Below the pieces are notes generated by a model. It searched no databases, was not told the origin of the DNA, and saw only the letters and a program-made list of their open reading frames with translations. 64,000 nt of DNA from Aureispira anguillae (lineage in GTDB: Bacteria; Bacteroidota; Bacteroidia; Chitinophagales; Saprospiraceae): positions 2,585,716 to 2,649,715 of the forward strand of contig NZ_AP026867.1 in the NCBI RefSeq assembly GCF_026000115.1, written 5' to 3'. This document shows, in pieces, positions 3,683-31,985 of this stretch (position 1 is the stretch's first letter; every line of letters begins with the position of its first letter). Made by a program: the position numbers and the translations under genes.

Positions 3683-4654
3683 ATGAAATTATTGATGTTA
3701 ATAGTACTTTTTGCGCTTCCTAGTGGTTTGTCGGCTACCATGCAAATACCTGATACTGTAATTTATAAAACTAAAAAGTACACTTTAATTTTAAAAGGCT
3801 CTGCACTCCACTATTCTCCGCTGTGTTTCTATTATCTTCAAAATGATATATCAATGCCTTTCAATGCATGGTCATCTGCGGTAAAAAGAAGGCATATTGC
3901 GACATGGCAAATAATTGATAATAAACTTTTCCTAACCAAAGTAAATACCGTTGAAGGTCCTAAGCCTTTAAAAGACTGTCAAGTCCAATCCATCAGCAGT
4001 TCATTCAATACTCCCAATTTACTTTTTGCGGATTGGTTTAGTGGTATCTTCGCCTTTGGTTTTCATTGCTTTCATGTAAAAGAGGGGAAAATTATCCTTG
4101 ATAAAAAAATGTGTGACAATAATAACTACCTTTTCTTCTCTAGATGCATCATGAAGTTTGATTCTATCTATTCCAATAATCAATTGTATAGATTGACTAC
4201 TGGTTATTACAAAAAAAGTCCAATTTTTGATTACTTTGGTCAAGGTAGTAGTTTCTTAGATTGGCCCTATAACTGGGAAAATAAAAATCTATGTGGGGTA
4301 CCACTCTGTAAATGGAAAATAACAAACGATAGTTTATTTTTGGATGTTTTAAACCTATACACCTCAGAAGGAAAATGGATAAATTTCCTACAAGTGGGAG
4401 CAATAAAAAACATTACAAACCATAGCTTTGCGGACTGGGTTAATGGTGTTTATAGAATAGAAAAAGGCAAGATGGTTAAGGAGATTGTTTATGATGATGT
4501 AGAATGGGAGTTTTTTAAAGTTTCAGAATATCAATACATAAGGATTAAGAAAGGAGTAATCGTAGAATCTTTTGTTGTAGAACCTAACTTTGATATAAAA
4601 AATCCTCCTCCCAATACAGATCCTAAGGGCTTACAAATAATAGCAGATTACTAA
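3683..4654 (+). CDS. secreted hypothetical protein
   Basis: 323-aa ORF with signal peptide. Confidence 0.5.
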   Translation: MKLLMLIVLFALPSGLSATMQIPDTVIYKTKKYTLILKGSALHYSPLCFYYLQNDISMPFNAWSSAVKRRHIATWQIIDNKLFLTKVNTVEGPKPLKDCQVQSISSSFNTPNLLFADWFSGIFAFGFHCFHVKEGKIILDKKMCDNNNYLFFSRCIMKFDSIYSNNQLYRLTTGYYKKSPIFDYFGQGSSFLDWPYNWENKNLCGVPLCKWKITNDSLFLDVLNLYTSEGKWINFLQVGAIKNITNHSFADWVNGVYRIEKGKMVKEIVYDDVEWEFFKVSEYQYIRIKKGVIVESFVVEPNFDIKNPPPNTDPKGLQIIADY

Positions 4655-4825
4655 AAATGAGTTATAAAAAGAGCTTTAAAGCGTCTTCTAGATCTGGGGA
4701 TATAAAAAATTGGGCAGCAAAATCCGACGAATCTTGAGGCTAAAAAGTAAACTTTTTGCCCAGTTGCCCCCAATCACACAGAGAGTGTGCTTTAATTTAT
4801 AAATCAAAGCGACCTGTTTCTATCA

Positions 4826-4905
4826 TTCTATCAATCCGCCTTACCCAAAGCATCGTTCATCAGCTTATTAGAAAGATGCAAATAAACCATGGTTGGCAAA
4901 AGACT
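4826..4905 (-). pseudogene. tyrosine recombinase 3'-end remnant (copy A)
   Basis: minus-strand translation gives ...TMIYLHLSNKLMNDALGK; about 75% nucleotide identity to copies at 5926-6000 and 6880-6950. Confidence 0.5.
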
Positions 4906-4937
4906 AAAAACTTACATTTTCAAATAAAGGCAAAAAA

Positions 4938-5627
4938 TCAATCTTTAATACACCTACAAGAATATCCCTCTGTCTTATCATATCCAGCACGACTTACTCC
5001 TCCTAACCCTGTATTTATATCACGAGCAAATCCAGTCGAAGATGTATGTTCTGTTGCTGTCCAAAAGAAAGCACGATACCCAATTTTATTATATCCAGAA
5101 TAATAATTACCCGCAGGAAATGCATTAAAGCCTAAATCATTAGTTCCATTACCAGCATTAACCCATCCTGTTGTAGATTTCATTCCTGTTCCATGAGTAC
5201 CTCGCCATGAGCCATCAAGAGTAGCGGTATCTACAGCGGACATTCCCAATGTCATTTCTAATTCATTCCATTCAGAATCAGAAGGTAAGTGCCAACCAGA
5301 AGGACAAATACCCTGCACGCCACTTGGACTAGCAGAACTAGAAGTCGAACCATTCATTAGCGTTGCCCAGTCATATAAGCGCCCATAAGTAACGGATGGG
5401 TTACTTGGATTTAGCCATGAACCTGATGCATTGTAGCGTAAGTTTTCCGCCATCCAACATTGATCTCCTATTTTAACTACTGAATACGTTTCTCCATCTC
5501 TAGAATCGGTAATAGTAGAACATGCTCCATTATTTTGAGTTGTTATTGGAGCTTTCTCACAGCCTGTCCATAAAATTACCAGACTGGCTAAAATAAAGGT
5601 TAAAACGGTTAGTTTCTGCATCGTCAA
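4938..5627 (-). CDS. FISUMP-domain (Fibrobacter succinogenes major paralogous domain) lipoprotein
   Basis: lipobox LWTGC; GDQCWMAENLRY, LYDW, CPSGWHLPSDSEW and FFWTAT motifs. Confidence 0.7.
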   Translation of the reverse strand: MTMQKLTVLTFILASLVILWTGCEKAPITTQNNGACSTITDSRDGETYSVVKIGDQCWMAENLRYNASGSWLNPSNPSVTYGRLYDWATLMNGSTSSSASPSGVQGICPSGWHLPSDSEWNELEMTLGMSAVDTATLDGSWRGTHGTGMKSTTGWVNAGNGTNDLGFNAFPAGNYYSGYNKIGYRAFFWTATEHTSSTGFARDINTGLGGVSRAGYDKTEGYSCRCIKD

Positions 5628-5925
5628 TTTTTTTCATTAAAAATTGAGCGCTAAAAAAAGAAAGCAGCTCATTAAGTTATAATATACAACCCAATATATG
5701 ATTTTATCACTAAAAGGAAGAATCAACATAACAGGTATTTACAATCCAAATTGAGATACCTCTGGAAAGACTCTTTCAAGTAATAACTTTACTAGTTAAT
5801 ATTTTTTTACTACAAAAAAGCTCGCTCATTACATAATATCATTTGACTAAAACAAACTAAAAAATCATTTTCGGAGTGGACTTAAAATTAAATATTCCTC
5901 CTAAAGGACTAAATAACAACATCCA

Positions 5926-6120
5926 TCAATAATGAGCGAAAAACAGATGCAAATAAATCATGGTTGTTTCGATCTTAGCATGCTGTAGGATTGCCTTTAA
6001 AATATGAATCGGCACCTTAGCCGCCAAATCCGTTGCAAAGGTATGGCGAGCCACATGGCTTGTTACGGGCTTTAGTATCCCTGCGTCATAGGCAATCTTC
6101 TTTGATTTATGGTTTTTCAC
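5926..6120 (-). pseudogene. tyrosine recombinase (phage-integrase family) C-terminal fragment (copy B)
   Basis: 64-aa ORF with catalytic box II HVARHTFAT...LQHAKIETTMIYLHL; no N-terminal domains. Confidence 0.65.
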
Positions 6121-6185
6121 TATAATATTGTATATTTATCTTGATTTAATCCCCTACAAATCTTGTTCACTAAGCCCCCTTACAA

Positions 6186-6770
6186 ATGACAGATAGAGTC
6201 AATACAATACAGAAAAATGAATTAAACAAACATAAGCTTCATCAAAATGTAATTTCAAGCTTGTCTAACAAATTAGGCATTCCTGATTTAAGAGCACGAA
6301 ATATAACCATTCGAGATGAACGAAATTGGAGGATCAATGAGAAACAAATTGACTATTGTTGGTTAATCAATATATCCCGATCTTTGATTGGATCCTGCTG
6401 GTTATTTTCGATAAAATTCAATGAATGTATTTTTAGGGATATTAAAAATGAAACTGAATTGATCCAAGGAATTTTTACGATTGATAAACAAATTGAAATA
6501 GATAAGTTTTATAGCACTGTACAAGCTAAAAATTTTAAGGATAAAATAAAGGAATTAACTTCTTATGATATGTTTGATGTAAACTCTGGAATTACTTTAG
6601 ATGGCACTGGGTATGAATATTTAATTTTTAGCGTTAATGCTGAAATTAAGATGTCATTAAATAACCCAAATTCTAAAAATTGGAAAGTTTGGGAAGCTGA
6701 AGTATGGAGTATTGGTAAAGAATTAGCACAAAAATCAAAAATAAATAACTTAACAGAAATATTTGTATAA
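6186..6770 (+). CDS. hypothetical protein
   Basis: 194-aa ORF; no recognisable motif. Confidence 0.4.
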   Translation: MTDRVNTIQKNELNKHKLHQNVISSLSNKLGIPDLRARNITIRDERNWRINEKQIDYCWLINISRSLIGSCWLFSIKFNECIFRDIKNETELIQGIFTIDKQIEIDKFYSTVQAKNFKDKIKELTSYDMFDVNSGITLDGTGYEYLIFSVNAEIKMSLNNPNSKNWKVWEAEVWSIGKELAQKSKINNLTEIFV

Positions 6771-6840
6771 AACGATACTCATATTCCTTAATAATTGGAC
6801 AAAAAAGGAGTATTTAGGTAAAAAACTATTCGAACTACCC

Positions 6841-6950
6841 CTTTCCTTATCCCTGTGTCCACCCTACCCAGCGCATCATTCACCAACTTATTAAAAGGGT
6901 GCAAATAAATCATCGTTGCTTCAATCTTAGAATGCTGTAGAATCACCTAA
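6841..6950 (-). pseudogene. tyrosine recombinase 3'-end remnant (copy C), abutting first attC-like site
   Basis: gtgcaaataaatcatcgttgcttcaatcttagaatgctgtag parallels copy B; the translation ends as in copy A. Confidence 0.5.
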
Positions 6951-7011
6951 GGTGTGTATATAGTTATTTATAGCACTTGTATATGTAATTGTGTATACAA
7001 GTAAGTTGTGC
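6948..7011 (+). other. attC-like (or attI-like) site at start of cassette array
   Basis: cctaagGTGTGTATATAG ... gtgtatacaag ... GTTGTGC resembles the attC consensus aacaaaGTGTATAT ... catatacac ... GTTRRRY. Confidence 0.35.
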
Positions 7012-7098
7012 TTCATTGAAACTTTAGTTTTAAGAAAATTTAAATTGTGAATCTCATTTATTAATTTAACGTAGATACTTAAAATCTAAAGTAACATT

Positions 7099-10000
7099 AT
7101 GGAATCCCAAAGCAAATCTTTCGCATCTCCTTCTGAATTTTACAAGCTTAAAAGACCAGAATTTTTCTCTGACTCAAAGATTATCTATGAAGTCCAATTA
7201 ACAAAAGAACATCTAGCGTTAGAATTAGATCAAATCACTATCAATCAAAAGCAAGATGAATTTGAAACATTGTGTAGAAAATTAGCAGAAAAATTAATTG
7301 CTCCGAACTTAATCCCACAAGTTGGTCCTACTGGTGGAGGGGATGGTAAAACTGATTTCGAAACTCATCCCGTATCTCATCAAATTTCAGATAGATGGTT
7401 TGTAACTCAAGAGGGATGGAAAGAAACTGAAAAGTGGGCATTCGCAATTAGCGCAAAAAAAACATGGAAGTCCAAAGCTAAATCAGATATCATAAATATC
7501 TTAAGTACTAAACGTCCATACACTCATATTTTTTTCATGACAAATCAAAAACCGTCAAGTAAAAAAAAGAAAGAAGCTCAAGATTCATTTAAAGAAGAAT
7601 ATGGAATAGAGGTCACCATTCTTGATGGGGTCTGGATAATTGAAAAAATACTACAACATAACTTTATTGATTTGGTAGTAGATGCACTCAATTTATCTAA
7701 AGTTTATAAAGAAAAAAAAGTAATATTAGGTGCTAATGATGACTTAAGAGAAAAACAATTACGTGAATTAGAAGAAAAAATTTCAACTCCTAATAGATAC
7801 TTTGAATATGATTTTCAACGTGTAGAAGATGCGATTGAAGCTGCAATCATATCAAGAATGCTTGAAAAGCCAAGAGATGAAATTGAGGGAAAATTTCTAA
7901 GAGCAAAACGTTTTTGTAAAAAACTAAACAATCCTAAACAATGGCAAAGAATATATTATCAAAGGGCGTGGACATATATTCATTGGTTTGATGATTATGA
8001 AGCTTTCATTGAAGATTATAAACAATTTAAAAAACATATTTCCCTTGCTTGTAATATTTCAAGTATGGAATTATTCTTCAATTTTATAAGCCTTCTAAGA
8101 GGCTTAGAAGTTTCTGATGTTTGCAACTTAAATGAGTTAGGTATCTCATTCAAAGAGGAAAAAGCTGAATTCTTAGAATCTCTATCTAAATTCAACGATA
8201 CAAATAAAATTCCTTGTTCAACAGCGATTGCTCATACTTATAAAAATATCCAAAAATTAATTGATGCAAAAGTAGACGAATCCTCTATATACATAAAAGA
8301 GCTCTCTGAAGTATTAGTACAAGGTTCAAAATATTTAGATTATCCATTTGAGTATTTTACCGATATTTTCACCCTAATTGGCAATATTTTCCCAAATAAT
8401 GAAGAATTTGACAACTTAACAGATATCATAGCACAAATTACTTCAAAACGGCAATCAGACTTAGCAAGTGGAGAAGTTTTTTTAAATCGTGGACTTCAAA
8501 AAATTGAAGCTGAGTTGTTTAAAGAAAGTGTAGTTTTCTTTGGCAAAACCATTGTAAAACTAGCAAAAAAAGAAAGTAACGACTTAATGTATTTTGCTCT
8601 AAGAGGACTAGCAGAAGCTTATTATAGATTGGGTTTACTTTGGGCTGCGAATAACTGCCTTACAGCTTCTCTTTCTTTATCATTCAAATCGTGGTATGAA
8701 AAAGGAGTCATTCATAAAAGGGTATATGATTGTATAACTGCTTTAGCAAAGAATGAGTTAATAATTGGAAGAATTCCTTCTTATTTTTCGTGGCACGAAA
8801 ATCTACAAATTATTAGGAGAGAAATAAATCTTGATGAAATTCCAGCTGAAAAGTCCCCTTATAATATCCTAGACGTTTTTCTTGCAATAAAGCTATTAAA
8901 TACAAGTAATTCAGAAAACAAGTATTTAGCCAGAATCCCAAATCTTTTGGATGAAAAACATTTGTGGTTATCTCAAGATGCTTGTTTATACAAACTCGGT
9001 TATCTGGAAAGGATTAAAGAGAATTTCAAATCGGCAGGAATTAAAGATATGAAACAAATCGATGACTATTTCAGAAATTTAGCTACACAACCTGCTCAGA
9101 AAGAATTATTAAACCCAACGAATTTTCTTGGCGATGAAATCATTTATCTATCATCAATTATTTTAGGTTGTGAATTCAAGATTAAATGCATAAATGATAA
9201 AAGTCTAATTATAACTGTTGAAGCTTTCTTAGCATACTTTGAAACTTTTTTAGCTACTTCTTTAAAAAATGTTGTCCCAGCAACAGAGGAAATCTATCTT
9301 CATTTCAAACGAAATGAAGATTGCGAAATATTAACTTTTTCAAACAAAAACAAATCGAATGAGTATGATATTGAAATAGGGCATGCTACCTTTTCAATGG
9401 AAAATAGAAGTAAGTTATGGGAATTAATGATCAACTTAATATCCGATATACTTGGGCGAAATTTCTTTTTCGATGAAATTGAGAAATATCTTAAAAATCT
9501 CTTTCAAAAAGAAGAAATTTCAGAAAGACTGTCTATTGTGTTTGAGCATATTACATTCACTTATAACACATTAGGAGAGTCCCCTAAAATTCTATTAAAA
9601 GACTGGATTGACATTGAAAAAACAGAAAACTATTCTAATAAAAGAAGTACTCCACTAAATTATAAAACTGACCAAAACAACTCATCTTCAGAGCTTAATA
9701 ACCAAACACTTAATAATTATGGTCATAATAAAAGAAAAGCATATTCATTAATTGACGTCCCTCTTTGGGATGAAGCGGGTTGGATTTCTTTTGGTATTTT
9801 TCAGTATCAAAAGGGTATTGGAATTGCTCTAGGATTTAAAGACGCTAATTATGGAAAAAAGATATTTGATGGATGGATTAATAAAATGGGAACAACTGAT
9901 AAAGAAGAAATTATCAAAATATGTATCATCAAAGGTGTAAATAAGGCTCACCCTCATTGGTATAAAGTTTTAATCACATCTAACATGGTAAAAATGAATC

Positions 10001-10320
10001 ATCCTGATACACAAATATTTACTCTAACATCAAGATATAGAGAGTTTTTCCCTAACACTTCAACAAATCTTGACAACTTAATCATGGCCTATAAGCATAC
10101 GAAGAAATATCTACTATGTCCTGCTGAAACCATCAACAACACAGGTATAAAACCTTTTATTAATTACGGAATAATCAAAACAGAATTAACAATTAAAAAT
10201 GCGTGGGAAATCGGTATTCATGATATAGAAAAAGTCGTTATAAACAAAAAAGACATCCCAATTATTCCCAATAACATAAAAGAACCTCCTATCTTAAGTA
10301 TATTAAACTTAAAAGAATAA
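7099..10320 (+). CDS. large (1073 aa) protein with N-terminal Mrr-like (PD-(D/E)xK) restriction-endonuclease-like domain; candidate defense protein
   Basis: N-terminus FETLCRKLAEKLIAPNLIPQVGPTGGGDGKTDFE matches the Mrr_cat pattern (TgGxGDGGiD); rest alpha-helical, unrecognised. Confidence 0.4.
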   Translation: MESQSKSFASPSEFYKLKRPEFFSDSKIIYEVQLTKEHLALELDQITINQKQDEFETLCRKLAEKLIAPNLIPQVGPTGGGDGKTDFETHPVSHQISDRWFVTQEGWKETEKWAFAISAKKTWKSKAKSDIINILSTKRPYTHIFFMTNQKPSSKKKKEAQDSFKEEYGIEVTILDGVWIIEKILQHNFIDLVVDALNLSKVYKEKKVILGANDDLREKQLRELEEKISTPNRYFEYDFQRVEDAIEAAIISRMLEKPRDEIEGKFLRAKRFCKKLNNPKQWQRIYYQRAWTYIHWFDDYEAFIEDYKQFKKHISLACNISSMELFFNFISLLRGLEVSDVCNLNELGISFKEEKAEFLESLSKFNDTNKIPCSTAIAHTYKNIQKLIDAKVDESSIYIKELSEVLVQGSKYLDYPFEYFTDIFTLIGNIFPNNEEFDNLTDIIAQITSKRQSDLASGEVFLNRGLQKIEAELFKESVVFFGKTIVKLAKKESNDLMYFALRGLAEAYYRLGLLWAANNCLTASLSLSFKSWYEKGVIHKRVYDCITALAKNELIIGRIPSYFSWHENLQIIRREINLDEIPAEKSPYNILDVFLAIKLLNTSNSENKYLARIPNLLDEKHLWLSQDACLYKLGYLERIKENFKSAGIKDMKQIDDYFRNLATQPAQKELLNPTNFLGDEIIYLSSIILGCEFKIKCINDKSLIITVEAFLAYFETFLATSLKNVVPATEEIYLHFKRNEDCEILTFSNKNKSNEYDIEIGHATFSMENRSKLWELMINLISDILGRNFFFDEIEKYLKNLFQKEEISERLSIVFEHITFTYNTLGESPKILLKDWIDIEKTENYSNKRSTPLNYKTDQNNSSSELNNQTLNNYGHNKRKAYSLIDVPLWDEAGWISFGIFQYQKGIGIALGFKDANYGKKIFDGWINKMGTTDKEEIIKICIIKGVNKAHPHWYKVLITSNMVKMNHPDTQIFTLTSRYREFFPNTSTNLDNLIMAYKHTKKYLLCPAETINNTGIKPFINYGIIKTELTIKNAWEIGIHDIEKVVINKKDIPIIPNNIKEPPILSILNLKE

Positions 10321-13876: not shown

Positions 13877-13947
13877 CGGTAGCCAACAAAGTGTAAAATG
13901 TTCATGCTGGCTATGTGCCAGCACGCCATTTACACGAGACCGTTACC
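13877..13947 (+). other. attC-like site (short class)
   Basis: ggtaGCCAACAAAGTGTAAaatgttcatgctggctatgtgccagc...acacgagacCGTTACCCat; internal hairpin gctggc/gccagc. Confidence 0.55.
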
Positions 13948-14039
13948 CATCATAAAAAATCATTCATTACTACAAAAACAATATTTTTTTTTGTAATTTA
14001 TACTTTCATGGTTACCTAATCCACCTAAACAAACTGCTT

Positions 14040-14294
14040 ATGCCTACTAATGAAAGTAAAAGTTTTCAAACATTCAAGGACAGAATCCATAACCTACGAC
14101 AACATCTTCAAGTAATTGATGCATCATTAAAAAAAACATCTCAATGGTTAGGAAGTTATACCCCAAAAACTGTCGCTATTGCAACTGCTTTGGGTGTATC
14201 ATCTCAAAATTACAATTATCTCAATAAGCCTATCAGCAGTCATAATAGTATGATTAAATACACCAAGAAAAAAATGCTGAATTTGCCATCATAG
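14040..14294 (+). CDS. hypothetical small protein (first gene of five-gene cassette)
   Basis: 84-aa ORF. Confidence 0.35.
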   Translation: MPTNESKSFQTFKDRIHNLRQHLQVIDASLKKTSQWLGSYTPKTVAIATALGVSSQNYNYLNKPISSHNSMIKYTKKKMLNLPS

Positions 14295-14320
14295 AATTAT
14301 TTAATAACTTTTCAATTTAC

Positions 14321-14788
14321 ATGAAAGGTATTTTAAGAGAGATGTACGATCATGACCCTGAAAAAATAATTCATAAAGCTGCTGGCAAAGAGAGAACTCT
14401 TACTTTCAATGAAATCGCTGCTTCAAATAACCTCGCTGATTTAAAAATAATAATGATTGATAAAATTTTCCGGAGCCTTGAAAACGAGAGATCAACCAAA
14501 AAACTTGTAAAAAAGATAATTAATCACACGGGAATAACTATAGATTCAACAATTCTTACAAATGGATTGATGCATCTCGAAATGCGTCACTTATTTATTC
14601 ATAATGATGGCATCGCTGATTTAGATTTTGTAAATATCTATGGAAATCTATTAGTCAGCCCTATATCTCAAGGAGATAAACTACCCAGAAATTTTTCGCA
14701 AACTACTAGAGGTCTCATTGCTGTTGAGAAGTTAGCAAAAGAAATTGACTCTAAATTAATTACAGCAGGTCATTTACAATCCAGATAA
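14321..14788 (+). CDS. hypothetical protein
   Basis: 155-aa ORF. Confidence 0.4.
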   Translation: MKGILREMYDHDPEKIIHKAAGKERTLTFNEIAASNNLADLKIIMIDKIFRSLENERSTKKLVKKIINHTGITIDSTILTNGLMHLEMRHLFIHNDGIADLDFVNIYGNLLVSPISQGDKLPRNFSQTTRGLIAVEKLAKEIDSKLITAGHLQSR

Positions 14789-14824
14789 ATTAATAAAATC
14801 AAAGCCAACAAAACCACATAATAA

Positions 14825-16198
14825 ATGAGTTTAATAAGACCTAGACTAAATGATTTTCATAATATCCCTATTACCCAAGAAGAAGTCGATTTTGCAATTC
14901 CTTTTTTAGATGAGGATATACCTCTTTATGTTGACCCTTTCTTATTATGGAAATCACCTTCTATGCAAGATAATTCTTTGCACCTCACGATAACAAATAG
15001 TTTTAACAATTTAGGTTACTTAGCTTCTCAGAACAAAGAAAAAGAAGCTCTTGAGATATTAATTAGAGCATCAGAATGCAATGAAGTCGGACTAGGTAAC
15101 TCTAAAACAAAAGTAGGAAAACGTATAGGGAAAAAACTAGCCAGTGATGTATTAGATCAATTTTCTACTATTCCCCAATTAAATAAAAACGGATTTATTC
15201 ACTTTGAAGAAATACAGCTATTAGTTGACAATTTTTCAAAAGACAGGGTAAGTGATATTGCATGTAATTTCATTCAATCATTTCTTGTTGATTTCACAAT
15301 CGAACAAGCTGAAAAACATGGCATTCCTATCGAACAAGTTTTATTAAAAAATATCTATAATACTAAAACTCATTCTTTTCAAGAAGAAAAAACTCATTTA
15401 CCAGTTAACCCAATAACCAAAGAACCTATTCTTCTTGTGCCCAAAAGGTGGTTAAAATATATCCCCTGGATTAATTCAGATGATTACTTCAAAAGTTATT
15501 ATTTAAAGAATATTCATAAAAAGGGGGATGCTATTCTTGACAGAGTAAAGCTTCTAAGCTTTAATAGACACAATTACGATATTGTTCAGGCATATACATC
15601 AATTAAAGAAAAGCATTTTGAAAATTGTAAGAATGATCCTCTATTTTCTCAGATACCCATTACATCTGCAAAAAGAAAAATCTCCACAATTCTAAAACTA
15701 CCAACAGGAAAGACAGATAACGCAGATCGTAAATATGAGGATAATACTTGTCAGTTCTTAACATCCTTAGTTTATCCACATTTAGATTTTGCACAAGAAC
15801 AAAGTAGAACTGAGTCAGGTGTTCAAATCAGAGATTTAATTTTTTACAATAATGCTTCTACCCCATTTTTAAAGGAAATATATAACACTTACGATTGTCG
15901 CCAAATTGTGATGGAACTAAAAAATGTGAAAGAAATTCAACAAAGTCACATTCTTCAACTAAACAGATATTTAAAAGATCAATTTGGACGATTTGGAGTT
16001 ATTATTACAAGAAATCCACCACCTAAAAAGGTTATTAAAAATATAATTGATTTATGGTCAGCCTATAGAAAATGTATTTTGGTTTTGGATGATTCAGATT
16101 TTAAAATGATGACTCAAGTATTTGAAAGTAAACAACGTGACCCAATTGAGGTAATCAAAAAAAAATATATAGAATTTACAAGAGCTTGCCCATCATAA
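14825..16198 (+). CDS. hypothetical protein (457 aa)
   Basis: long ORF, no recognisable catalytic motif. Confidence 0.45.
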   Translation: MSLIRPRLNDFHNIPITQEEVDFAIPFLDEDIPLYVDPFLLWKSPSMQDNSLHLTITNSFNNLGYLASQNKEKEALEILIRASECNEVGLGNSKTKVGKRIGKKLASDVLDQFSTIPQLNKNGFIHFEEIQLLVDNFSKDRVSDIACNFIQSFLVDFTIEQAEKHGIPIEQVLLKNIYNTKTHSFQEEKTHLPVNPITKEPILLVPKRWLKYIPWINSDDYFKSYYLKNIHKKGDAILDRVKLLSFNRHNYDIVQAYTSIKEKHFENCKNDPLFSQIPITSAKRKISTILKLPTGKTDNADRKYEDNTCQFLTSLVYPHLDFAQEQSRTESGVQIRDLIFYNNASTPFLKEIYNTYDCRQIVMELKNVKEIQQSHILQLNRYLKDQFGRFGVIITRNPPPKKVIKNIIDLWSAYRKCILVLDDSDFKMMTQVFESKQRDPIEVIKKKYIEFTRACPS

Positions 16199-16208
16199 AA
16201 TAGAAACA

Positions 16209-16589
16209 ATGAATAAAGAGACTGTTAACAAATTTGAAAAAGTTCAAGGACAGATTGAGGGTTTTTATAAAGAAATTGGAATACTTTCTAAAAAAAATCC
16301 CAACGATGCTGTCAATAAATTTAAACTAAAATTTATAAATCAAATTTTAGTAGAAGCAAATGAATTACTCCAAGGTCTTTATAAACCATTAAAAGACTTT
16401 GATTTTTTTGAAGAAGATGATATCCCTACTAACAGCGATGTCACTATGATTTTTGAACAATACCTTGCTTGTTTAGAAAAACTTAGAAGCGATAACATAA
16501 TACTAGATTTTGGAAACTGGTATTGGATAATTAACGGAAAATCTTCTTCAATCAAAACTTCTGAACCAAAAAAAATTAGAAATAAGTAA
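16209..16589 (+). CDS. hypothetical protein, paralog of the next gene
   Basis: shares KKNPNDAVNKFKLKFINQIL ... PTNSD with 16589..16945 (KKKPDEPLNKFKVKNVNRVL ... PTNSD). Confidence 0.45.
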   Translation: MNKETVNKFEKVQGQIEGFYKEIGILSKKNPNDAVNKFKLKFINQILVEANELLQGLYKPLKDFDFFEEDDIPTNSDVTMIFEQYLACLEKLRSDNIILDFGNWYWIINGKSSSIKTSEPKKIRNK

Positions 16590-16945
16590 TGGCAAAAAAT
16601 GAGAACTTACCAACGAATGCTCAAGTTGAATTATTTAAAATGCTTGATGTTTTATTGAATTCTATTTATTTCGAGATGAAAGAATTTTCAAAGAAAAAAC
16701 CAGATGAACCACTCAATAAATTTAAAGTAAAAAATGTAAATAGAGTTTTAGAACAAATAAAAGATATTCTAAAAGCAGAACCTACAAGTCCATTCCTGGA
16801 TATCCTGAATGAGGATACATTACCAACAAACAGTGACGCCATTTTAGTTATTGGACAATTTAGAGCGTCTATGGCAAGGTTTCAAAAGAAATATGCTGCA
16901 AAATATGGTAAATGGAAAACAAAAGAAAACCCTACAGGAATTTAA
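16589..16945 (+). CDS. hypothetical protein, paralog of previous gene
   Basis: start overlaps upstream stop (ATGA-type coupling). Confidence 0.45.
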   Translation: MAKNENLPTNAQVELFKMLDVLLNSIYFEMKEFSKKKPDEPLNKFKVKNVNRVLEQIKDILKAEPTSPFLDILNEDTLPTNSDAILVIGQFRASMARFQKKYAAKYGKWKTKENPTGI

Positions 16946-17207
16946 TAAAACGGTAGGTAACAATATGCCAATTCCATAAAGTTAAGAGCAAAAGCTGGTC
17001 TGTAATTTGCAGAAAATCTGTTTCTAAAGCTGTCACATTTCAGGCAGGAACAATTTTAGAAGGTGCATACCAAATTTGCTATCTATAGGGATAGCACATT
17101 CCTTAGCTCTAAAATCACATATTTTCTTCCGTATCAGTGTAGGCATCCCAAGAGAAGCAACCGTTAGTTAAGAGAAAAAATATTATATTAGATAAAAACT
17201 AACGAAA

Positions 17208-17501
17208 ATGAAGAGGAGTAAATTTAGCACAGCTCAAAAAGCAAAGATATTAGCAGAGCATGACGGCGGAAAAAGTGTAACGGATTTATGCCGTCAATAC
17301 CAAATTAGTGCAGCTACGTTGTATAAATGGAAAAAGGACTATGAAGATAGTCAAGATGAAGATAAACGAAGAATAAAGGAATTAGAGGCAGAAAATGTTC
17401 GTTTAAAAAAGATGTATGCTAATTTAAGTATCGATCATGAGATACTTCAAGAAGGTTATGCAATGGTAAAAAAGTTCCAAGCCCAAAAGAACAAGAAATG
17501 A
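17208..17501 (+). CDS. IS3-family transposase OrfA (HTH, leucine zipper)
   Basis: MKRSKFSTAQKAKILAEHDGGKSVTDLCRQYQISAATLYKWKK. Confidence 0.9.
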   Translation: MKRSKFSTAQKAKILAEHDGGKSVTDLCRQYQISAATLYKWKKDYEDSQDEDKRRIKELEAENVRLKKMYANLSIDHEILQEGYAMVKKFQAQKNKK

Positions 17502-18334
17502 TATTGGATTGCTTGTCAAAAGAATACAGCATTCGTCGTACTTGTGTTGTTTTGGGCTTACGCCGTCAGACATATTATAGTCGTAAATCAGGTCATCGCC
17601 CAGAAGAAAAGGATGAAGAAATAGTGGATTTACTACATCAGTTAACAAAACGTTTTGTATCATGGGGCTTTTGGAAAATTTATCACTATTTGAGAAATCA
17701 AGGCTATGCCTATAATCATAAGAGAATTTATCGTATATGGTGTATAGAGGGTTTAAATTTACGTTTACCGCCCAAACGCAAGAGGATTTATCGAAAATAT
17801 CAACAACTTTTGGCTCCTAAAGAAGTCAACAAAGGTTGGGCTATGGATTTTCTAAGTGATTGGGTTGTTAGCCCAACTAATCATCGTATACGAATTATCA
17901 ATATTATGGATGAAGGTTCTCGCCGAGCCTTATGGACAGAAGCTCATCATAATATTTCAGCTAAAAAGCTAATAGAGGTTTTGGAGAAAGTGATAGAATA
18001 TCGTGGAAAACCATCTTATATTCGTTGTGACAATGGTCCTGAGTTTATTTCAGAAAAGCTCAAATTGTGGGCAAATAAACATGATATTGAATTGAAATTC
18101 ATCCAACCAGGAAAGCCATCTCAGAATGGTTTGATTGAGCGTTTGAATAAAACATTGAGAGCCGAATGTTTGAACTTATGCTGGTTTCAATCTCTAGAAG
18201 AATTAAATGAAGAAATACAGGTTTGGAGTCAGATTTATAATCTAGAACGACCTCATAAGAACTTAGGTAATATTACCCCAGATTCTTTTGAGATTCTAAA
18301 TCAGAAACTCTACTTTTTAGCGGTTGCTGCTTAG
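17498..18334 (+). CDS. IS3-family transposase OrfB (DDE integrase core)
   Basis: rve-domain motifs WAMDF...D, CDNGPEF, KPSQNGLIERLNKTLRAE. Confidence 0.9.
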   Translation: MILDCLSKEYSIRRTCVVLGLRRQTYYSRKSGHRPEEKDEEIVDLLHQLTKRFVSWGFWKIYHYLRNQGYAYNHKRIYRIWCIEGLNLRLPPKRKRIYRKYQQLLAPKEVNKGWAMDFLSDWVVSPTNHRIRIINIMDEGSRRALWTEAHHNISAKKLIEVLEKVIEYRGKPSYIRCDNGPEFISEKLKLWANKHDIELKFIQPGKPSQNGLIERLNKTLRAECLNLCWFQSLEELNEEIQVWSQIYNLERPHKNLGNITPDSFEILNQKLYFLAVAA

Positions 18335-18560
18335 GGGAAGCCTACATCAGGCACTCGAATTCCAGTTCCATCAATCGCCAATAGTCGGTATCCTTTCCAA
18401 TATTTTATTCCTCGATTGCTTCGATAAAAAAGTTGGCAACTATAAGAAAATAAGTCTTCAAAAAAACAAACCTTAATCTTTGAACGAGCTAAGGCTAATG
18501 CTGTCTTTGTTGGTGGGCACCTTGATCTAAATAGTCTTGAGTGGGAGATTAATTCGGCGT

Positions 18561-18755
18561 TTACACTTTTTTTAAAAGACCTAATATCAATCCTACCGTT
18601 GTTGCAAAATCTAATTTGCGATGTCTTGTAAAATCTTGTTCTGGGCGAATCAAATAGGTCGCCCGTTTTTGGGCTGTTAAACTCGCCAAAATTATAAATA
18701 ATTTTAGCTTCTTTAATTGTGCTGTTAAGCTTAGTAGTTTTTTGTCACGTTTCAT
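18561..18755 (-). pseudogene. N-terminal fragment of IS4/IS5-superfamily transposase
   Basis: 64-aa ORF near-identical to 31565..31759. Confidence 0.6.
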
Positions 18756-19095
18756 CCCCTAAATATATGTTTTTTCTGACTACTTTCCTTAACTTTATGG
18801 CAGTGAACAAGAAATATACGTCAATCCCACATCTTGGGCTAAAGCTAAAGTTCATTCGTATGTAACACTACGCAAAATCGCAGATTTTGCTAGTACTCGA
18901 AGAAAAAATTACTAGCAAAATCTGCGATTTTGCTTTGGGATTAGCTATATTCCTATTCGTATAACTTGTGGCACTGCGTATATCAAGACGTTGTCATCAA
19001 TTCAAAGAAAAATCATTACGCAAATACACTGCGCAGCAACTTTTTAACTTTGAGTCTCAGTAAAAAATCTAATCTAGGACTTAAAAATAAAAACT

Positions 19096-20079
19096 ATGGA
19101 CAGAAGAAAATTTAAAGGCATATCTATATTCTTATTGATTAAAGAACGTATTAAAATTGAACTCAATGAATTTCAAGAAATCATTGAAGAGATATCTAGT
19201 GATTTAGAAAGTAAGAAGGCTAAAATTGAAGCCAGTTATGAAAATCTTGAAGCAAGTGGGTATGAAGATCATTACTCTGATATTCTTATTGATGAGTACC
19301 AAAAATATGATAAAACATTCCCTAAATATACTTTTAACCCTCTTCTGCTATCTATCTATGGTTATTTTGAAAATTGGCTCAGAAAACTTTGTGATATTGA
19401 CTCAAGAAAAGGTTTTTCAAAAATTAAAGTATCGGATTTAGCTGGTAGAAACTATATCGAAAAAAGTAAAACCTATTTTCAAAAAGTTGCTGAAATTGAC
19501 TTGAGTATTCTAAATGAAAAATGGCAGCGAGTAAAAGAAATCCAAAAAATAAGAAATTTAATAGCTCATAATGAATCAAATATCGTCAAAAATAAATCTA
19601 AACCTATACACGAACAACCAACTTATCAAATAATCAATGGAGATGAAAATTTAGCTTTAGACCTCCAAAATGGAGATTTTCATATCATGAATAAAACCTT
19701 TCTACTTGAAGCAATTTCATTAGTTCAAGAATATCTCAACGAGGTAATTGAAAAATTATCAAAGAGAAAAGTTATAGCAAAAAATACCGCTGTGCCATAT
19801 GATATGACTCCATGGGGAGAAGAAAAAACAGAAAGTCTCCTTAAAGATATTATACATTGCTTAAACTTAATTGATGGTTATTACGAAAGAGACGATGAAC
19901 ATCGCTTGGAAGATACATTAGGGAATTTAAAAGGAAACCTTGGCGCCATGGCTTGGAATGGCACTAAAATTTTATCCTTTTTTATGAATGGAAAATGGGA
20001 AACAATAGACAGAGATTACATTGTAAACGAAAGATTATCTGGTCTAAAAAAATTGAAAGATCTTTACAAAAAAAACTGA
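19096..20079 (+). CDS. HEPN-like domain protein (putative abortive-infection type)
   Basis: KIRNLIAHNES fits the HEPN Rx4-6H motif (RNxxxH); alpha-helical 327-aa protein in a single-gene cassette. Confidence 0.3.
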   Translation: MDRRKFKGISIFLLIKERIKIELNEFQEIIEEISSDLESKKAKIEASYENLEASGYEDHYSDILIDEYQKYDKTFPKYTFNPLLLSIYGYFENWLRKLCDIDSRKGFSKIKVSDLAGRNYIEKSKTYFQKVAEIDLSILNEKWQRVKEIQKIRNLIAHNESNIVKNKSKPIHEQPTYQIINGDENLALDLQNGDFHIMNKTFLLEAISLVQEYLNEVIEKLSKRKVIAKNTAVPYDMTPWGEEKTESLLKDIIHCLNLIDGYYERDDEHRLEDTLGNLKGNLGAMAWNGTKILSFFMNGKWETIDRDYIVNERLSGLKKLKDLYKKN

Positions 20080-20272
20080 TAACAACAATCTGCATATAGC
20101 CATCCAGAGCACTCTGTAACGCCCAATTCAGGGGCTTTGTCCAAGCGCAAAATCGCAGATTTTGCCAGTACTCTGAACGAAATTTACTGCCAAAATCTAC
20201 GATTTTGCTTATCTGTAACGCACACTTTTCGTATTTTGCTCTTTCTGCACGGTATATGCAGTAACGTTGGCA
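20078..20272 (+). other. attC-like site (long class)
   Basis: GATAACAACAATCTG ... gcaaaatcgcagattttgcc ... ggcaaaatctacgattttgc ... acGTTGGCAtcaat. Confidence 0.6.
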
Positions 20273-20315
20273 TCAATTAGAAAGGAAATATCGTAAAAAT
20301 GTATCCAAGATTCGT

Positions 20316-20345
20316 GATTTTGTTTAAGTGACTTAGCTATACTTA
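20316..20345 (+). promoter_or_regulatory. candidate Bacteroidetes sigma-A promoter for SDR cassette
   Basis: TAACTTTG (-7 TAnnTTTG) about 50 bp upstream of 20395, with a TTTG element about 20 bp further upstream. Confidence 0.3.
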
Positions 20346-20394
20346 GGTATAACTTTGCAGTATTATTTCAACTAAGAAAAATACAATCAATATC

Positions 20395-21342
20395 ATGGAA
20401 AATAGTATTTCAAATATTCATGGATGGACCCCTAAAAGCATAAAAAGCCTTCAGGGGAAAACTTATGTTATTACAGGAGCTAATGTAGGAATTGGTTACG
20501 AAGCTGCAAAAACCTTTTTAAAAAAGGGAGCAAAAGTAGTAATGCTCAATCGCAATGAGCAAAAAACAAAAAATGCAATTGCTCAATTGAAAAAAGACTT
20601 AGGCTCTAAGATTGATGTTTCTTATATCATAATGGATTTAGAATCTTTGGCTTCTGTCAGAAAAGCCGCTGCTAAAGCTATAGAAAGTATCTCCACATTT
20701 GATGCTTTCATTTGCAATGCGGCAGTCGGGCAATTAGCAAAGCAAGAAATATCTAATGACGGTTTTGAAAAACAATTGGGCATCAATCATTATGGTCATT
20801 TTTTACTCTTAAACCTGATGTTCCAAAAAATCAAAGCGGTCAAAGCCAGGATAGTTCTTGTTGGAAGTAATGGCTATAACATGGGATTGAAGAAAATTCA
20901 ATTCGAGGATATGAATTTTGATAAGAATTACAACCCAATGAGAACTTATTGCCATAGCAAATTAGCTCAAATGATGTTTGCCTATGAATTACAGCGAAAG
21001 ATAAAAGCAAACAATGGAGATACCGAAGTTTACGTCTGTCATCCCGGTGCATCAAAAACTACTATGGGGGTAGAAGAAGGCAATCGAATGACAAAAATTA
21101 TGTTTAAGATTATGGCACTTACTCCCCTTGCTCAATCCGCAGAGGCAGGTTCTCATCCGACAGTAATGTGTGCAACAGAAAATAATTTGAAGCAACTGGC
21201 ATATTATGGACCAACGGGGACGATGAATTTAGTTGGTCCATTAGGAGCATGTACATTGGAAGAACATGTATTGGACAAAGCTTCAGCACAGAAGCTTTGG
21301 GAATTATCAGAAAAAGAAACTAATTGCAGTTGGAAATTCTAA
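20395..21342 (+). CDS. short-chain dehydrogenase/reductase (SDR) family oxidoreductase
   Basis: TGANVGIGYEAA (TGxxxGIG) cofactor motif; YCHSK (YxxxK) catalytic motif. Confidence 0.85.
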   Translation: MENSISNIHGWTPKSIKSLQGKTYVITGANVGIGYEAAKTFLKKGAKVVMLNRNEQKTKNAIAQLKKDLGSKIDVSYIIMDLESLASVRKAAAKAIESISTFDAFICNAAVGQLAKQEISNDGFEKQLGINHYGHFLLLNLMFQKIKAVKARIVLVGSNGYNMGLKKIQFEDMNFDKNYNPMRTYCHSKLAQMMFAYELQRKIKANNGDTEVYVCHPGASKTTMGVEEGNRMTKIMFKIMALTPLAQSAEAGSHPTVMCATENNLKQLAYYGPTGTMNLVGPLGACTLEEHVLDKASAQKLWELSEKETNCSWKF

Positions 21343-21379
21343 TTTAGAAATCATATTTAAATCATCAAAAAAAATAATA

Positions 21380-23127: not shown

Positions 23128-24408
23128 ATGAATATTGATAAACTTAAAAAGCAAATAGATAAATTCCAAAGTTCGATTAGGTATTATGAAATACTCTTTC
23201 AAAGGGATGGCAATATCACTCCTGATGAACAAGCTTTATTGAATAAATTGAATGAGTCTATAGAAAAAATAAACAATAAAATAAAATCCATTCAAAAGAG
23301 TACTATAGAGAAACTTACGCTCAAATACAATGACTGTAAAAGAAGTTTTAATCTTATAAAAGAAAGCCTTGAAAATTATATTAATGACAATCAGGCATTG
23401 TCTAAAAATATAAACTCATTTGATTCAGATTACACTTCTTATTTTAAAAAGTTTGCTAAAAGCGATTTTCATACACAGAATCAAATAAAAAAGCAGAAAG
23501 AACAAATAAAAAAATGGCAAACAGAAGTCCTAGCTGTTAAAGAAAAACATATTAAGCCCGTTAAAGATCTTTCTAAACAGAAAGCTAATCCTAAAATGAA
23601 ATCTGAAACAAAAAAGATTGCGACCTACAAAGATGTTACAAAATATCAAATTGATGCAATCGTTGATTTGTTTAAAAATGGAAATAATCGAAGCATTGAT
23701 AACAATGCAGCAATTCATCATAATGATGTAAAACAAGGAAATCTAGATGACTGTTATTTTTTAGCTGCTTTAGCGGCTGTTGCTAAAGCAAATCCTAGTT
23801 CTATTAAGAATCTTATCACTCCAAAAAAAGATGGAACTTATGATGTAAAGCTATACATTCGAAAGAAAAAGTTCTTAAACCCTAGTGGATTAAATCCCAT
23901 AATTGTAAATGTTTCAACAGAATTACCTATTTCTAACAAAACTGACAACCCTATTTATGCTAGGCATGGAGACAACGAACTATGGGTTTCCTTAGTTGAA
24001 AAAGCGTTTGCTAAATTAAATGGAACTAAATATGATAGTTCCTATAAAAAAGTAGAATGGGGTCATGGTTATGAAGCTATTGAAAATATAACAGGGCATG
24101 CTGCTTCTCATTTTATTCCAAAGAAAAAGACTAGGGAGGACTTAATTGAAATTATACAAAGTGCATTAATAGACGAACGCCCTATTACTGCTGGAACCAA
24201 ACCAAATAAAAAAAACAATTTCAACTTCAAACTAGATGATAATACAGAACTTGTTCCAGCACATGAATACTACATTATAAACATAAACAATAAAGAAATA
24301 GAACTTCGAAACCCACATGGGAATGACACATATATTGGAGGAAATATATTTACTATTGACATCAGTAATTTTATTAGTTATTTTAGTATAGTTTCTTTAA
24401 ATAGTTAA
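23128..24408 (+). CDS. calpain-like cysteine protease (peptidase C2-like) with N-terminal coiled-coil
   Basis: QGNLDDCYFLAALAA matches the calpain active-site Cys motif QGxLGDCWLLAA; HEYYI with ELRNPHGND parallels calpain GHAYSV and RLRNPWG. Confidence 0.55.
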   Translation: MNIDKLKKQIDKFQSSIRYYEILFQRDGNITPDEQALLNKLNESIEKINNKIKSIQKSTIEKLTLKYNDCKRSFNLIKESLENYINDNQALSKNINSFDSDYTSYFKKFAKSDFHTQNQIKKQKEQIKKWQTEVLAVKEKHIKPVKDLSKQKANPKMKSETKKIATYKDVTKYQIDAIVDLFKNGNNRSIDNNAAIHHNDVKQGNLDDCYFLAALAAVAKANPSSIKNLITPKKDGTYDVKLYIRKKKFLNPSGLNPIIVNVSTELPISNKTDNPIYARHGDNELWVSLVEKAFAKLNGTKYDSSYKKVEWGHGYEAIENITGHAASHFIPKKKTREDLIEIIQSALIDERPITAGTKPNKKNNFNFKLDDNTELVPAHEYYIININNKEIELRNPHGNDTYIGGNIFTIDISNFISYFSIVSLNS

Positions 24409-24825: not shown

Positions 24826-24830
24826 CGCCA

Positions 24831-25024
24831 CTTAACAAGAAATATACGTCAATCCCACATCTTGGGCTAAAGCTAAAGTTCATTCGTATGTAACACTACG
24901 CAAAATCGCAGATTTTGCTAGTACTCGAAGAAAAAATTACTAGCAAAATCTGCGATTTTGCTTTGGGATTAGCTATATTCCTATTCGTATAACTTGTGGC
25001 ACTGCGTATATCAAGACGTTATAG
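24831..25024 (+). other. attC-like site (long class)
   Basis: CTTAACAAgaaatatacg...gcaaaatcgcagattttgctagtactcgaagaaaaaattactagcaaaatctgcgattttgc...gcgtatatcaagacGTTATAG; near-identical to 18811-18996. Confidence 0.65.
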
Positions 25025-28134: not shown

Positions 28135-28920
28135 ATGTTAAGAATAGAAAAAACTCAACTAAATATTAGTGCTTTAATCACAATGTCTTCTGGATTAAAA
28201 AAGCTTCAATCTAACACAATTACAGAAATGATGGATAAAGGAGAAAAAGCAGGACAAGTGATAATTACTAGAGAAAAAAGGGAAAATGAAAAAACAGATC
28301 TGCAATTAAGCCTAGAGTTACTAAATAAACTTTTTTTTAGTCTTGTTGGAGGTCCTCCTAGCCCACTTATTCTAAGTGGCGATGAAGAAAGATATCTCAG
28401 AAATTGTTCTTATGCTTATTACTACTATAAGACTGAAGAAGCCGAAATTTCTCCCCTAGATGTTTTTGGTGTATTTCACAAAACGCATTTCAACACACCA
28501 CCGCCAAATGAGTTACATAAAGAATTTCCAAAGATGCTTTTATCCACTTTCGGTCTAAATCCCGAATTATCTCAAGCATTCAATAAATACCAACAAACAT
28601 CACCAATTGCCTTACCCTCTCCAAAGTCTTTTAATCATGTATTTCAAACACTAAAGACTGAATTCGTCAATAATGAAATAAAATTAGTATTGGAAGCAAC
28701 CAATCTTGAAATGACGAAAAGTATAGACTCCTTATTTGCATTAAAAGATTTGTTATTTTGTTGTGAGTTTGATACAAGTTCAATTCTTGAACATCATGAA
28801 TTTTCAAAAATAAGTGGACAAAAAGACACATATAACTGGGGTGCTAAAAATGGGATAAAGCCATCTATAGAGTTTGATTACGATTACCTGAAAGTAGATG
28901 TAACAAAAAACTGTGCCTAA
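28135..28920 (+). CDS. hypothetical protein (261 aa), co-cassette with PLD-like gene
   Basis: ORF immediately followed by attC inverse core. Confidence 0.4.
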   Translation: MLRIEKTQLNISALITMSSGLKKLQSNTITEMMDKGEKAGQVIITREKRENEKTDLQLSLELLNKLFFSLVGGPPSPLILSGDEERYLRNCSYAYYYYKTEEAEISPLDVFGVFHKTHFNTPPPNELHKEFPKMLLSTFGLNPELSQAFNKYQQTSPIALPSPKSFNHVFQTLKTEFVNNEIKLVLEATNLEMTKSIDSLFALKDLLFCCEFDTSSILEHHEFSKISGQKDTYNWGAKNGIKPSIEFDYDYLKVDVTKNCA

Positions 28921-29135
28921 CAATCTGTCAATTCCATAAAGTTAAGAGCAAAAGCTGGTCTGTAATTTGCGGAAAATCTGTTTCTAAAGCTGTCACATTT
29001 CAGGCAGGAACAATTTTAGAAGGTGCATACCAAATTTGCTATCTATAGGGACAGCATATTCCTGAGCTCTAAAATTACATTTCTTTTTAGAGCTTGATTA
29101 TTAATTGTATTCCAATGCTTTATAAGCTACCTATA

Positions 29136-30105: not shown

Positions 30106-30141
30106 TGAGGTATTGAGGTGTACCCCATTTATAGGACCAGT

Positions 30142-31050: not shown

Positions 31051-31055
31051 GGGCT

Positions 31056-31334: not shown

Positions 31335-31564
31335 TAATTTAAGCTTTTTTTCCGAACTTAACTAGTGGTCCTATTTTTGGGGTATACCGTAGTATCCTTT
31401 CCAATATTTTATTCCTCGATTGCTTCGATAAAAAAGTTGGCAACTATAAGAAAATAAGTCTTCAAAAAAACAAACCTTAATCTTTAAACGAGCTAAGGCT
31501 AATGCTGTCTTTGTTGGTGGGCATCTTGATCTAAATAGTCTTGAGTGGGAGATTAATTCAGCGT

Positions 31565-31759: not shown

Positions 31760-31985
31760 CCTCTAAATATATGTTTTTTCTGACTACTTTCCTTAACTTT
31801 ATGGCAGTGAACAATGTGTATGCAGCAATACTAGATTTCGGGCTAAAGCTAAATATTCGTCTTTTGCCTAGCACCGCAAAATCGCAGATTTTGCTCTAAG
31901 GAATAGCTATATTTAAGTTCGCATAGCTTCTAGTTCTGTACATACACGCACGTTAGCTCTCATTAAAAAAAAGAAAAACCCAAAT

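Follow-up and report, generated by a model that had tools for sequence, protein, structure and literature searches.

A three-gene operon in the bacterium Aureispira anguillae encodes a protein with a PD-(D/E)XK nuclease fold, which we call A, followed by two small paralogous partners, B1 and B2. The operon is the functional unit at positions 14825-16945 of the window, the 64,000-nucleotide stretch of contig NZ_AP026867.1 (assembly GCF_026000115.1, positions 2,585,716 to 2,649,715 of the forward strand) to which all positions below refer unless another locus is named. An initial annotation had described positions 14040-16945 as an unusually large integron cassette of five entirely uncharacterised genes, the last two of them paralogs, and as a plausible new multi-gene defence or toxin system. 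We find that the first two open reading frames (ORFs) are the halves of one broken gene that stands outside the conserved system. The other three are an instance of the uncharacterised PDC-M36 / DUF8370 family, which is already catalogued and so not new as a candidate. The idea of a defence or toxin operon mobilised as one cassette survives for these last three genes; as a five-gene system, and as a new candidate, it does not. We propose that A-B1-B2 is a nuclease-based anti-phage or anti-mobile-element module, carried as an integron cassette in a large array, and we give this proposal about an even chance of being right.

The A-B1-B2 operon and its conservation

The trio is identified by its matches to PADLOC models. 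Protein A, 457 amino acids (aa) long, matches PDLC04597 (PDC-M36A) with an E value of 2.4e-245 and 812 bits, residues 1-457 falling on model positions 1-457. The 126-aa B1 matches PDLC04599 (E 4.7e-57) and the 118-aa B2 matches PDLC04600 (E 9e-44), two different PDC-M36B models. The three genes are adjacent and co-oriented, with gaps of 10 and -1 nt, and precomputed Pfam hits place DUF8370 on the large protein and on every homolog. Scans of the cassette proteins against the Pfam and NCBIfam libraries returned nothing beyond a near-threshold PDDEXK_3 / GxxExxY match. PDC-M36 is a 'phage defence candidate' of PADLOC-DB v2, multi-gene number 36, among 145 bioinformatic candidates (10.1101/2024.01.29.577857). 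Such candidates are defined by their embedding in BREX, DISARM or type I restriction-modification (RM) loci, or 'guilt by embedding', and about 7 of 9 assayed candidates from the same approach (Hma loci) gave defence (Payne et al. 2024, 10.1101/2024.01.29.577857).

Do these three genes keep company elsewhere? We fetched 28 genome loci with relatives of A, 23 of which hold full-length A, and added plasmids and long contigs (all loci are numbered with an L below). Directly after A comes a B1-type and then a B2-type gene at 17 of the 23 full-length loci, a single B gene at five, and none at one (L018). When neighbouring ORFs were clustered all-against-all, A and B were the sole recurring families. 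Spacing is kept as well: 7-14 nt separate A from B1 and -1 to +6 nt separate B1 from B2, the order being B1-B2 in most two-B loci. The same trio is found on a Methylobacterium plasmid, a Leptolyngbya plasmid and further long contigs, and its order and spacing are common to Bacteroidota, Acidobacteriota, Cyanobacteria, Proteobacteria and archaea. In four Acidobacteriota loci (L018, L020-L022) the arrangement is looser, with a single B gene 150-270 nt downstream of A and none detected in L018. Because this clade differs, the duplication of B and its tight coupling to A are not universal.

About 2,800 homologs of protein A can be detected. Identity is 75-83% in many Bacteroidota, and likewise in metagenome-assembled genomes labelled Rhizobiaceae, Desulfobacterales and Chlorobiales; it falls to about 65% for a contig labelled Methanoregula and to about 54% for Acidobacteriota. 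The high identity does not reflect recent transfer, because nucleotide identity is just 69-76% and synonymous sites are saturated. With that saturation, the ratio dN/dS comes to about 0.07-0.10 (A), 0.13-0.18 (B1) and 0.09-0.20 (B2), and all three are functional genes under strong purifying selection. Phage genomes contain no full-length homolog of A, the sole match being a partial one at 27% identity in two Klebsiella phage-plasmids. Many enterobacterial plasmid matches to A were set aside: they are distant, cover the nuclease domain alone, and belong to genes annotated as 'ATP-binding protein' or 'hypothetical protein' or not listed at all.

Protein A consists of a family-specific N-terminal region (about residues 1-290) and a C-terminal FokI-like PD-(D/E)XK domain (about 290-457). 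The motif residues are D337, E364-L-K366 and Q378xxxY382, and the D ... (D/E)-x-K motif sits on a conserved alpha-beta-beta-beta-alpha-beta core. Against PDDEXK_3 the window protein scores 20.6 bits for a cut-off of 22, and 43 of 48 homologs match at E<=0.01 (best 2.4e-6). Protein A carries the C-terminal nuclease fold together with its motifs, from which nuclease activity is predicted. A profile search with A against PDB sequences returned noise only. The N-terminal module of about 200 residues turns up in Sinorhizobium and Acinetobacter plasmid proteins as well, where neither the nuclease domain nor B genes go with it.

B1 and B2 are 28% identical and have in common the motifs KKxP..NKFK(L/V)K..N and PTNSD. 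The paralogy noted in the initial annotation is borne out; to judge from their sequences, the two are ancient paralogs. AlphaFold models B1 with a pLDDT of 93.7 as a three-helix bundle with a three-stranded sheet. A profile search with the B family found 830 cluster representatives, nearly all stand-alone proteins of 90-190 aa. Two further ideas about B were dropped. The resemblance to the proteasome activator Bpa is that of a generic helical bundle (E 0.05, TM 0.48), and the isoelectric points (pI) of B1 and B2 are too moderate to suggest that they mimic DNA or bind nucleic acids.

Cassette boundaries, passenger gene and array

Five ORFs occupy the + strand at 14040-14294, 14321-14788, 14825-16198, 16209-16589 and 16589-16945. 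The gaps between them are 26, 36, 10 and -1 nt, and the final junction, TAATG, overlaps a stop and a start codon. This packing had been read exactly, and none of the gaps is long enough to hold an attC site; the initial annotation had likewise placed none between the genes.

A cassette can circularise only if its 5' end is complementary to the R'' box in the attC that it carries. Cassette ends were judged by inspecting the junctions and by comparing the 5' end of each cassette with its own R'' box. The R'' box AGGTAAC (16955-16961), 3' of the last stop codon, pairs at 7 of 7 positions with the R' box GTTACCT located 29 nt before the 84-aa ORF; the 36-nt spacer 5' of A holds no R' box. Because R' and R'' are perfectly complementary, all five ORFs, the broken gene included, lie inside one cassette, in agreement with the initial annotation. 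Elsewhere the boundaries enclose the trio only, again with 7/7 pairing: GTTACCA/TGGTAAC in L001, GTTACCC/GGGTAAC in L003 and L004, GTTACCT/AGGTAAC in L006 and GTTGTGC/GCACAAC in L011. In these other copies the upstream sequence reads '..CCGTTACCCAACATT..ATG', and downstream come TAAaaaCGTTGGGTAACAA, a hairpin and '..CCGTTAKSC'. Downstream of the trio, intact attC sites are present in L003-L006. At L038 the trio occupies the first cassette position, adjoining the gene of a divergent recombinase that clears the NCBIfam threshold for integron integrases (TIGR02249, 269 bits for a cut-off of 265). Compared in this way, the co-varying ends mark the trio as a multi-phylum integron gene cassette. The size called unusual is relative: stand-alone trio cassettes measure about 2.2-2.4 kb, and the window itself contains a large cassette of its own for a 1073-aa protein (7099-10320), which matches nothing in Pfam, NCBIfam or PADLOC. 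Co-varying R'/R'' boxes offer a definition of cassette ends, and hence of system boundaries, that needs sequence only; here the approach separates the cargo, which is the trio, from the passenger, which is the broken gene.

What is the broken gene? A search of 5.8 billion proteins gave eight homologs of the 155-aa protein, all but one of them 243-269 aa long. The 84-aa ORF aligns to the N-terminal 80 or so residues of these homologs (61% identity to the closest) and the 155-aa ORF to the remainder. One extra A in the A7 run (14268-14274) yields an uninterrupted 249-aa frame whose junction, KKKNAEFAIIELFNNFSIYMKGIL, agrees with the homologs' KGKNSEYAIIELFNAFSNYMNGIL. The two ORFs are the halves of one gene of about 249 codons with a 1-nt frameshift (-1) in A7, so the block contains four genes and not five. 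The frameshifted gene is either a pseudogene or the product of a homopolymer sequencing error. It is absent beside A at 40 of 40 other A-carrying loci, and its two other occurrences are without A. Because it is seen at none of the 40 related loci, the gene is a passenger outside the conserved system, and therefore the five ORFs resolve into one passenger and a three-gene system. We infer that the passenger was captured into, or fused with, the trio cassette in the Aureispira lineage.

The passenger's family is tentatively HEPN-like. A motif, LEMRHLFIHN (Rx4H, which fits the HEPN pattern Rx4-6H), is kept in all family members that cover that C-terminal region. No HEPN model matches the family above threshold, the best match being HEPN_RiboL-PSP in one homolog (E 0.006, 16.9 bits against a cut-off of 28.4), and a profile search against PDB sequences gave noise only. 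In a metagenomic integron (L030) a relative of the passenger lies in a different cassette (GTTATAA/TTATAAC) beside integron-integrase fragments. There, at 5570-6765 of that locus, the cassette holds two genes, one for the intact relative and one for a '4-fold beta flower' protein of 122 aa (PF21784, E 2e-26). The two may form a toxin-partner pair, of which the partner is missing from the Aureispira cassette, where the gene is broken.

The claim that the closing attC has been invaded by insertion sequence (IS) elements is also correct. The R'' end is intact, and the site is split by a composite IS of about 1.8 kb, beyond which a full attC-like repeat at 18806-18996 closes the block ahead of the next cassette. 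The outer element is a DDE_Tnp_1-type deletion copy in two parts, 16969-17137 and 18351-~18805, the right boundary being approximate. It is itself split by an IS3-family element (orfA 17208-17501, orfB 17498-18334) with imperfect inverted repeats at its ends (27/40 matching) and a 4-bp duplication, TCAG, checked against the uninterrupted copy at 36085-36110. These nested insertions would have come later, probably immobilising the trio cassette. The DDE_Tnp_1-type IS is present in four copies in the window, at 16969, ~28925, ~35922 and ~53390, with the transposase in the long copy. That long copy (28904-31821) is itself invaded. The IS derivative of about 600 bp always lies directly 3' of an attC-type '..GCCTAACAAT.TG' (AACAA) box, the flanking repeats being similar and not identical, which suggests that the element targets the 5' end of attC sites.

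The window as a whole is a one-directional array. Its intergenic attC-like repeats of about 190 nt read AACAAT-TG-ATAT, then a central hairpin, then ATATACAC..CGTTRNN; a shorter attC type occurs too, and the short site that precedes the cassette has a copy with 81% identity at 40159-40205 (repeat family D16). Two of the long repeats, 18801-18992 and 24829-25020, lie 6 kb apart and are 99-100% identical over 192 nt, closer than other copies, which hints at recent duplication or recombination within the array. Immediately before the cassette, 60 AT-rich nucleotides (13951-14010) separate the R' boxes GTTACCC (13944) and GTTACCT (14011); they may be what is left of a degenerate cassette without an ORF, or else a 5' leader. 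An Rfam scan of the whole window found no attC, group II intron or other RNA family; the attC-start consensus CGGTWRSYAACAA had 13 matches for 9.8 expected, which is chance level; and a detector requiring at least 6/7 R-box pairing within each site found none, with hits in shuffled sequence. Scans for sigma-70 promoters and for terminators gave the shuffled expectation, with a tool that lacks Bacteroidota promoter coverage. No tyrosine recombinase or integron integrase was found among the scanned ORFs of the window, which are not all of its ORFs, and the array exceeds the window. The window may lie inside a large array, or it may be a cluster of attC sites lacking an integrase (CALIN). The Draconibacterium array (L033) has, at 4315-7467 and 18581-21374 of that locus, four genes for group II intron reverse transcriptases (RVT_1 + GIIM) on the strand opposite the cassettes; by analogy, they recall the group IIC-attC introns that target attC sites.

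The contents of the array are mixed: regulators and numerous unknowns stand beside three proteins of recognisable family. A serine beta-lactamase-family protein (PF00144, E 6.5e-52) is encoded at 38571-39758 and a calpain-like cysteine peptidase (E 1.4e-25) at 23128-24408. The third, at 31986-33719, is a GmrSD-family type IV restriction enzyme (GmrSD_N E 1e-38, GmrSD_C E 2e-21; PADLOC HEC-06/Orf5/SspE-like), clearly a defence gene within the same array. The cassette that follows the trio encodes a 327-aa protein (19096-20079) with a canonical RNxxxH motif, IQKIRNLIAHN, and weak matches to a Swt1-like HEPN model (E 0.084) and to PADLOC RTasHEPN (E 0.001); it may be another RNase-type toxin or defence gene. 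Kinship of its HEPN-like region with that of the passenger was considered and found unsupported (hhalign probability 0.1%). Table 1 lists the features of the cassette and its immediate surroundings.

Table 1. Features of the PDC-M36 cassette and its flanks (positions in the window)
Feature	Position	Strand	Evidence or remark
Short attC-like site closing the upstream cassette	13877..13950	+	Imperfect palindrome, R' GTTACCC at 13944-13950; sequence inspection and DNA fold
R'-type box GTTACCT, probable ancestral 5' cassette boundary	14011..14017	+	7/7 complementary to R'' 16955-16961
Frameshifted passenger gene, ~249 aa	14040..14788	+	Rare family, split into 84-aa and 155-aa ORFs
Protein A, 457 aa, PDC-M36A / Pfam DUF8370	14825..16198	+	PADLOC model match
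Protein B1, 126 aa, PDC-M36B model PDLC04599	16209..16589	+	PADLOC model match
Protein B2, 118 aa, PDC-M36B model PDLC04600	16589..16945	+	PADLOC model match
5' part of the cassette's own attC, R'' AGGTAAC at 16955-16961	16948..16968	+	Matches aaaCGTTGGGTAACAA 3' of the B2 stop elsewhere
Composite IS inside the attC, outer DDE_Tnp_1-type deletion copy	16969..18805	.	Repeat families D1, D2, D4, D10; flank alignment
IS3-family insertion sequence	17138..18346	+	rve, rve_3 and HTH_21 domains; TG...CA ends
attC-like repeat, ~190 nt, central hairpin, R' GTTGTCA 18990-18996	18806..18996	+	Repeat families D3, D5, D6, D8

A proposed defence role and the alternatives

How might the three proteins work together? 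In the model we favour, A would be the effector. Its N-terminal 290 or so residues would serve in target recognition or regulation, and its FokI/BspD6I-type C-terminal domain would cleave DNA; like FokI, it would probably have to dimerise to cut both strands. B1 and B2, which are translationally coupled, would most likely pair as a heterodimer, or as a homodimer where only a single B is present, and the dimer would sense the invader or gate A. The module would then cut phage or mobile-element DNA, or else host DNA in an abortive response, while the broken upstream gene would be an unrelated passenger trapped in the cassette.

The company kept by the trio and by distant relatives of A gives this model part of its support. 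In Draconibacterium (L033) a CBASS 4TM effector (E 1e-58) and cyclase (E 1e-104) lie directly upstream, an MmeI-type RM gene lies downstream and RhuM is near. A type I RM system and Abi_2 are near the trio in Flavobacterium petrolei (L032); cassettes for Ppl-like and PDC-S73 proteins follow the trio in L038; and on a Bacillus mycoides plasmid GajB, the Gabija helicase, adjoins a full-length distant homolog of A. Homologs were found neither in conserved housekeeping contexts nor with metabolic annotations.

A number of observations weigh against a defence role. Co-occurrence with defence genes is partial, the trio's contexts in L031, L036, L037 and L039 having none. No methyltransferase domain is present in any ORF of the cassette, nor consistently beside the trio elsewhere, and the cassette has no other obvious means of telling self from non-self. 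Defence genes normally evolve fast, and conservation as high as that of A (about 80% identity both inside Bacteroidota and outside them, 54% with Acidobacteriota) is unusual among them. Structure gives little guidance: the AlphaFold model of A is of moderate quality (pLDDT 68.7), its N-terminal 290 or so residues have no recognisable relative or fold, a Foldseek search with B1 against the PDB gave no meaningful structural match (best E 0.05, TM 0.48), and a profile search with B against PDB sequences returned noise, with no relative that indicates a role. PDC-M36, identical in gene content to the trio, is a purely computational candidate with no described mechanism. Neither PDC-M36 nor DUF8370 is mentioned in any paper found by a literature search; in that respect the description 'entirely uncharacterised' stands, and it fails in that the three proteins match PDC-M36 models and DUF8370. 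Finally, residues 1-49 of A (14825-14971; IPFLDEDIPLYVDPFLLWKSP), near-invariant across phyla, are left unmodelled, with a pLDDT of about 30. The invariant positions are R5-P6-R7 and F23..P26-F27-D29-E30-D31..Y35-D37-P38-F39-L40-W42-K43-S44-P45. Because the segment is near-invariant yet unmodelled, the model suggests that it may fold only on a partner, making it a candidate docking site for B1/B2 or for oligomerisation.

A bolder version of the defence model is possible, and we hold it tentatively. PDC-M36 would be an immune system with a new mechanism, in which two small proteins of unseen fold, paired as a heterodimer, gate a FokI-like nuclease whose near-invariant N-terminal sensor is itself new; the system would spread as a three-gene cassette across phyla and into archaea. 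The strong conservation would then reflect a co-adapted three-protein machine and not an arms-race target.

The trio might instead be a toxin-antitoxin (TA), or addiction, module in which A is a nuclease toxin and B1/B2 the antitoxin or antitoxins, so that loss kills the cell and thereby stabilises arrays and plasmids. TA cassettes are common in Vibrio superintegrons, and the trio is found both on plasmids and in large sedentary-type cassette arrays. A tight, translationally coupled operon with small partner proteins is also what one would expect; the nuclease fold suits a toxin, and the B1-like proteins lean acidic (median pI 5.1). Nevertheless, a 457-aa toxin with two downstream paralogous partners is atypical for a type II system, B shows none of the known antitoxin DNA-binding folds (RHH, HTH, AbrB), and L018 has A with no detectable B. 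We consider this explanation unlikely, bearing in mind that addiction and abortive defence are compatible and not mutually exclusive.

A stand-alone restriction-like enzyme, of type IV or IIS-like character, is a sub-case of the defence model more than a true alternative. Here the N-terminus of A would read modified or specific foreign DNA, the FokI-like domain would cut it, and B1/B2 would be accessory factors for specificity or assembly. No SRA, winged-helix or other domain known to read DNA is matched by that N-terminal region, and the B genes look like core parts, since nearly every locus retains them and purifying selection acts on them. We judge the restriction-like arrangement improbable.

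Still less can be said for a role outside immunity, as a DNA-damage or repair accessory of mobile elements tied to the translesion polymerase umuDC. On two unrelated plasmids, those of Methylobacterium (L034, 3928-7128) and Leptolyngbya (L035, 4163-8191), the trio lies directly downstream of umuD/umuC-type genes on the same strand, 39 nt from the umuC-like gene in Methylobacterium. Peptidase_S24, IMS and SRAP genes lie about 3 kb from it in Flavobacterium petrolei (L032, 14709-17061), and strong conservation is more typical of housekeeping-like functions. Set against this, umuC/umuD genes occur in 3 of the 35 loci searched (L032, L034 and L035) and, within about 6 kb, in none of the 28 genome loci; umuDC is common cargo of plasmids and islands; and the trio is mobile alone, as a cassette without repair genes. 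A repair role is very improbable. That all five ORFs form a single co-evolved system is scarcely tenable: they share one complementary boundary pair and are tightly packed, but the first two are one frameshifted gene that is missing from the other A loci, occurs twice without A, and has a relative in a different cassette with a Bflower-family partner.

If the defence model is validated, one of PADLOC's 145 candidates becomes characterised, with a compact, programmable-looking FokI-type cleavage domain and small regulators, and the idea of the integron as a 'defence biobank' extends to environmental Bacteroidota and to multi-gene cassettes. For annotation, a split pseudogene is corrected and three 'hypothetical proteins' gain a testable role.

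Relation to known systems

Protein A resembles the cleavage domains of the type IIS enzymes FokI and BspD6I in that its own domain is also PD-(D/E)XK, at an identity of just 9-12%. It differs from those enzymes in lacking both a recognisable FokI-type domain for DNA recognition and a partner methyltransferase; in their place it has two small obligatory partners. Other defence systems employ PD-(D/E)XK effectors, among them Shedu SduA, Cap4/NucC/Can2, the nuclease domain of Avs4, and MspJI/AspBHI. The A system has no sequence-level match to the PADLOC models of these, lacks CARF, SAVED, STAND and DUF4263 domains, and differs in its N-terminal region and in its partners. The passenger gene, for its part, is like the HEPN toxins in its conserved R-x4-H motif and unlike them in having no threshold-level model match and in being broken here.

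Beyond the catalogued PDC-M36 entry, the present analysis identifies an integron cassette as the vehicle, assigns A as a FokI-like nuclease, and supplies the fold of B and the selection data. Vibrio and mobile integrons are already known to keep defence systems in their cassettes. The published defence cassettes come from Vibrio and from proteobacterial mobile integrons, whereas PDC-M36, as yet a candidate only, is a three-gene cassette of about 2.3 kb found mainly in Bacteroidota integrons. The likeness lies in the arrangement: as in the published cases, a defence-type function is placed between attC sites and stockpiled beside unrelated cassettes.

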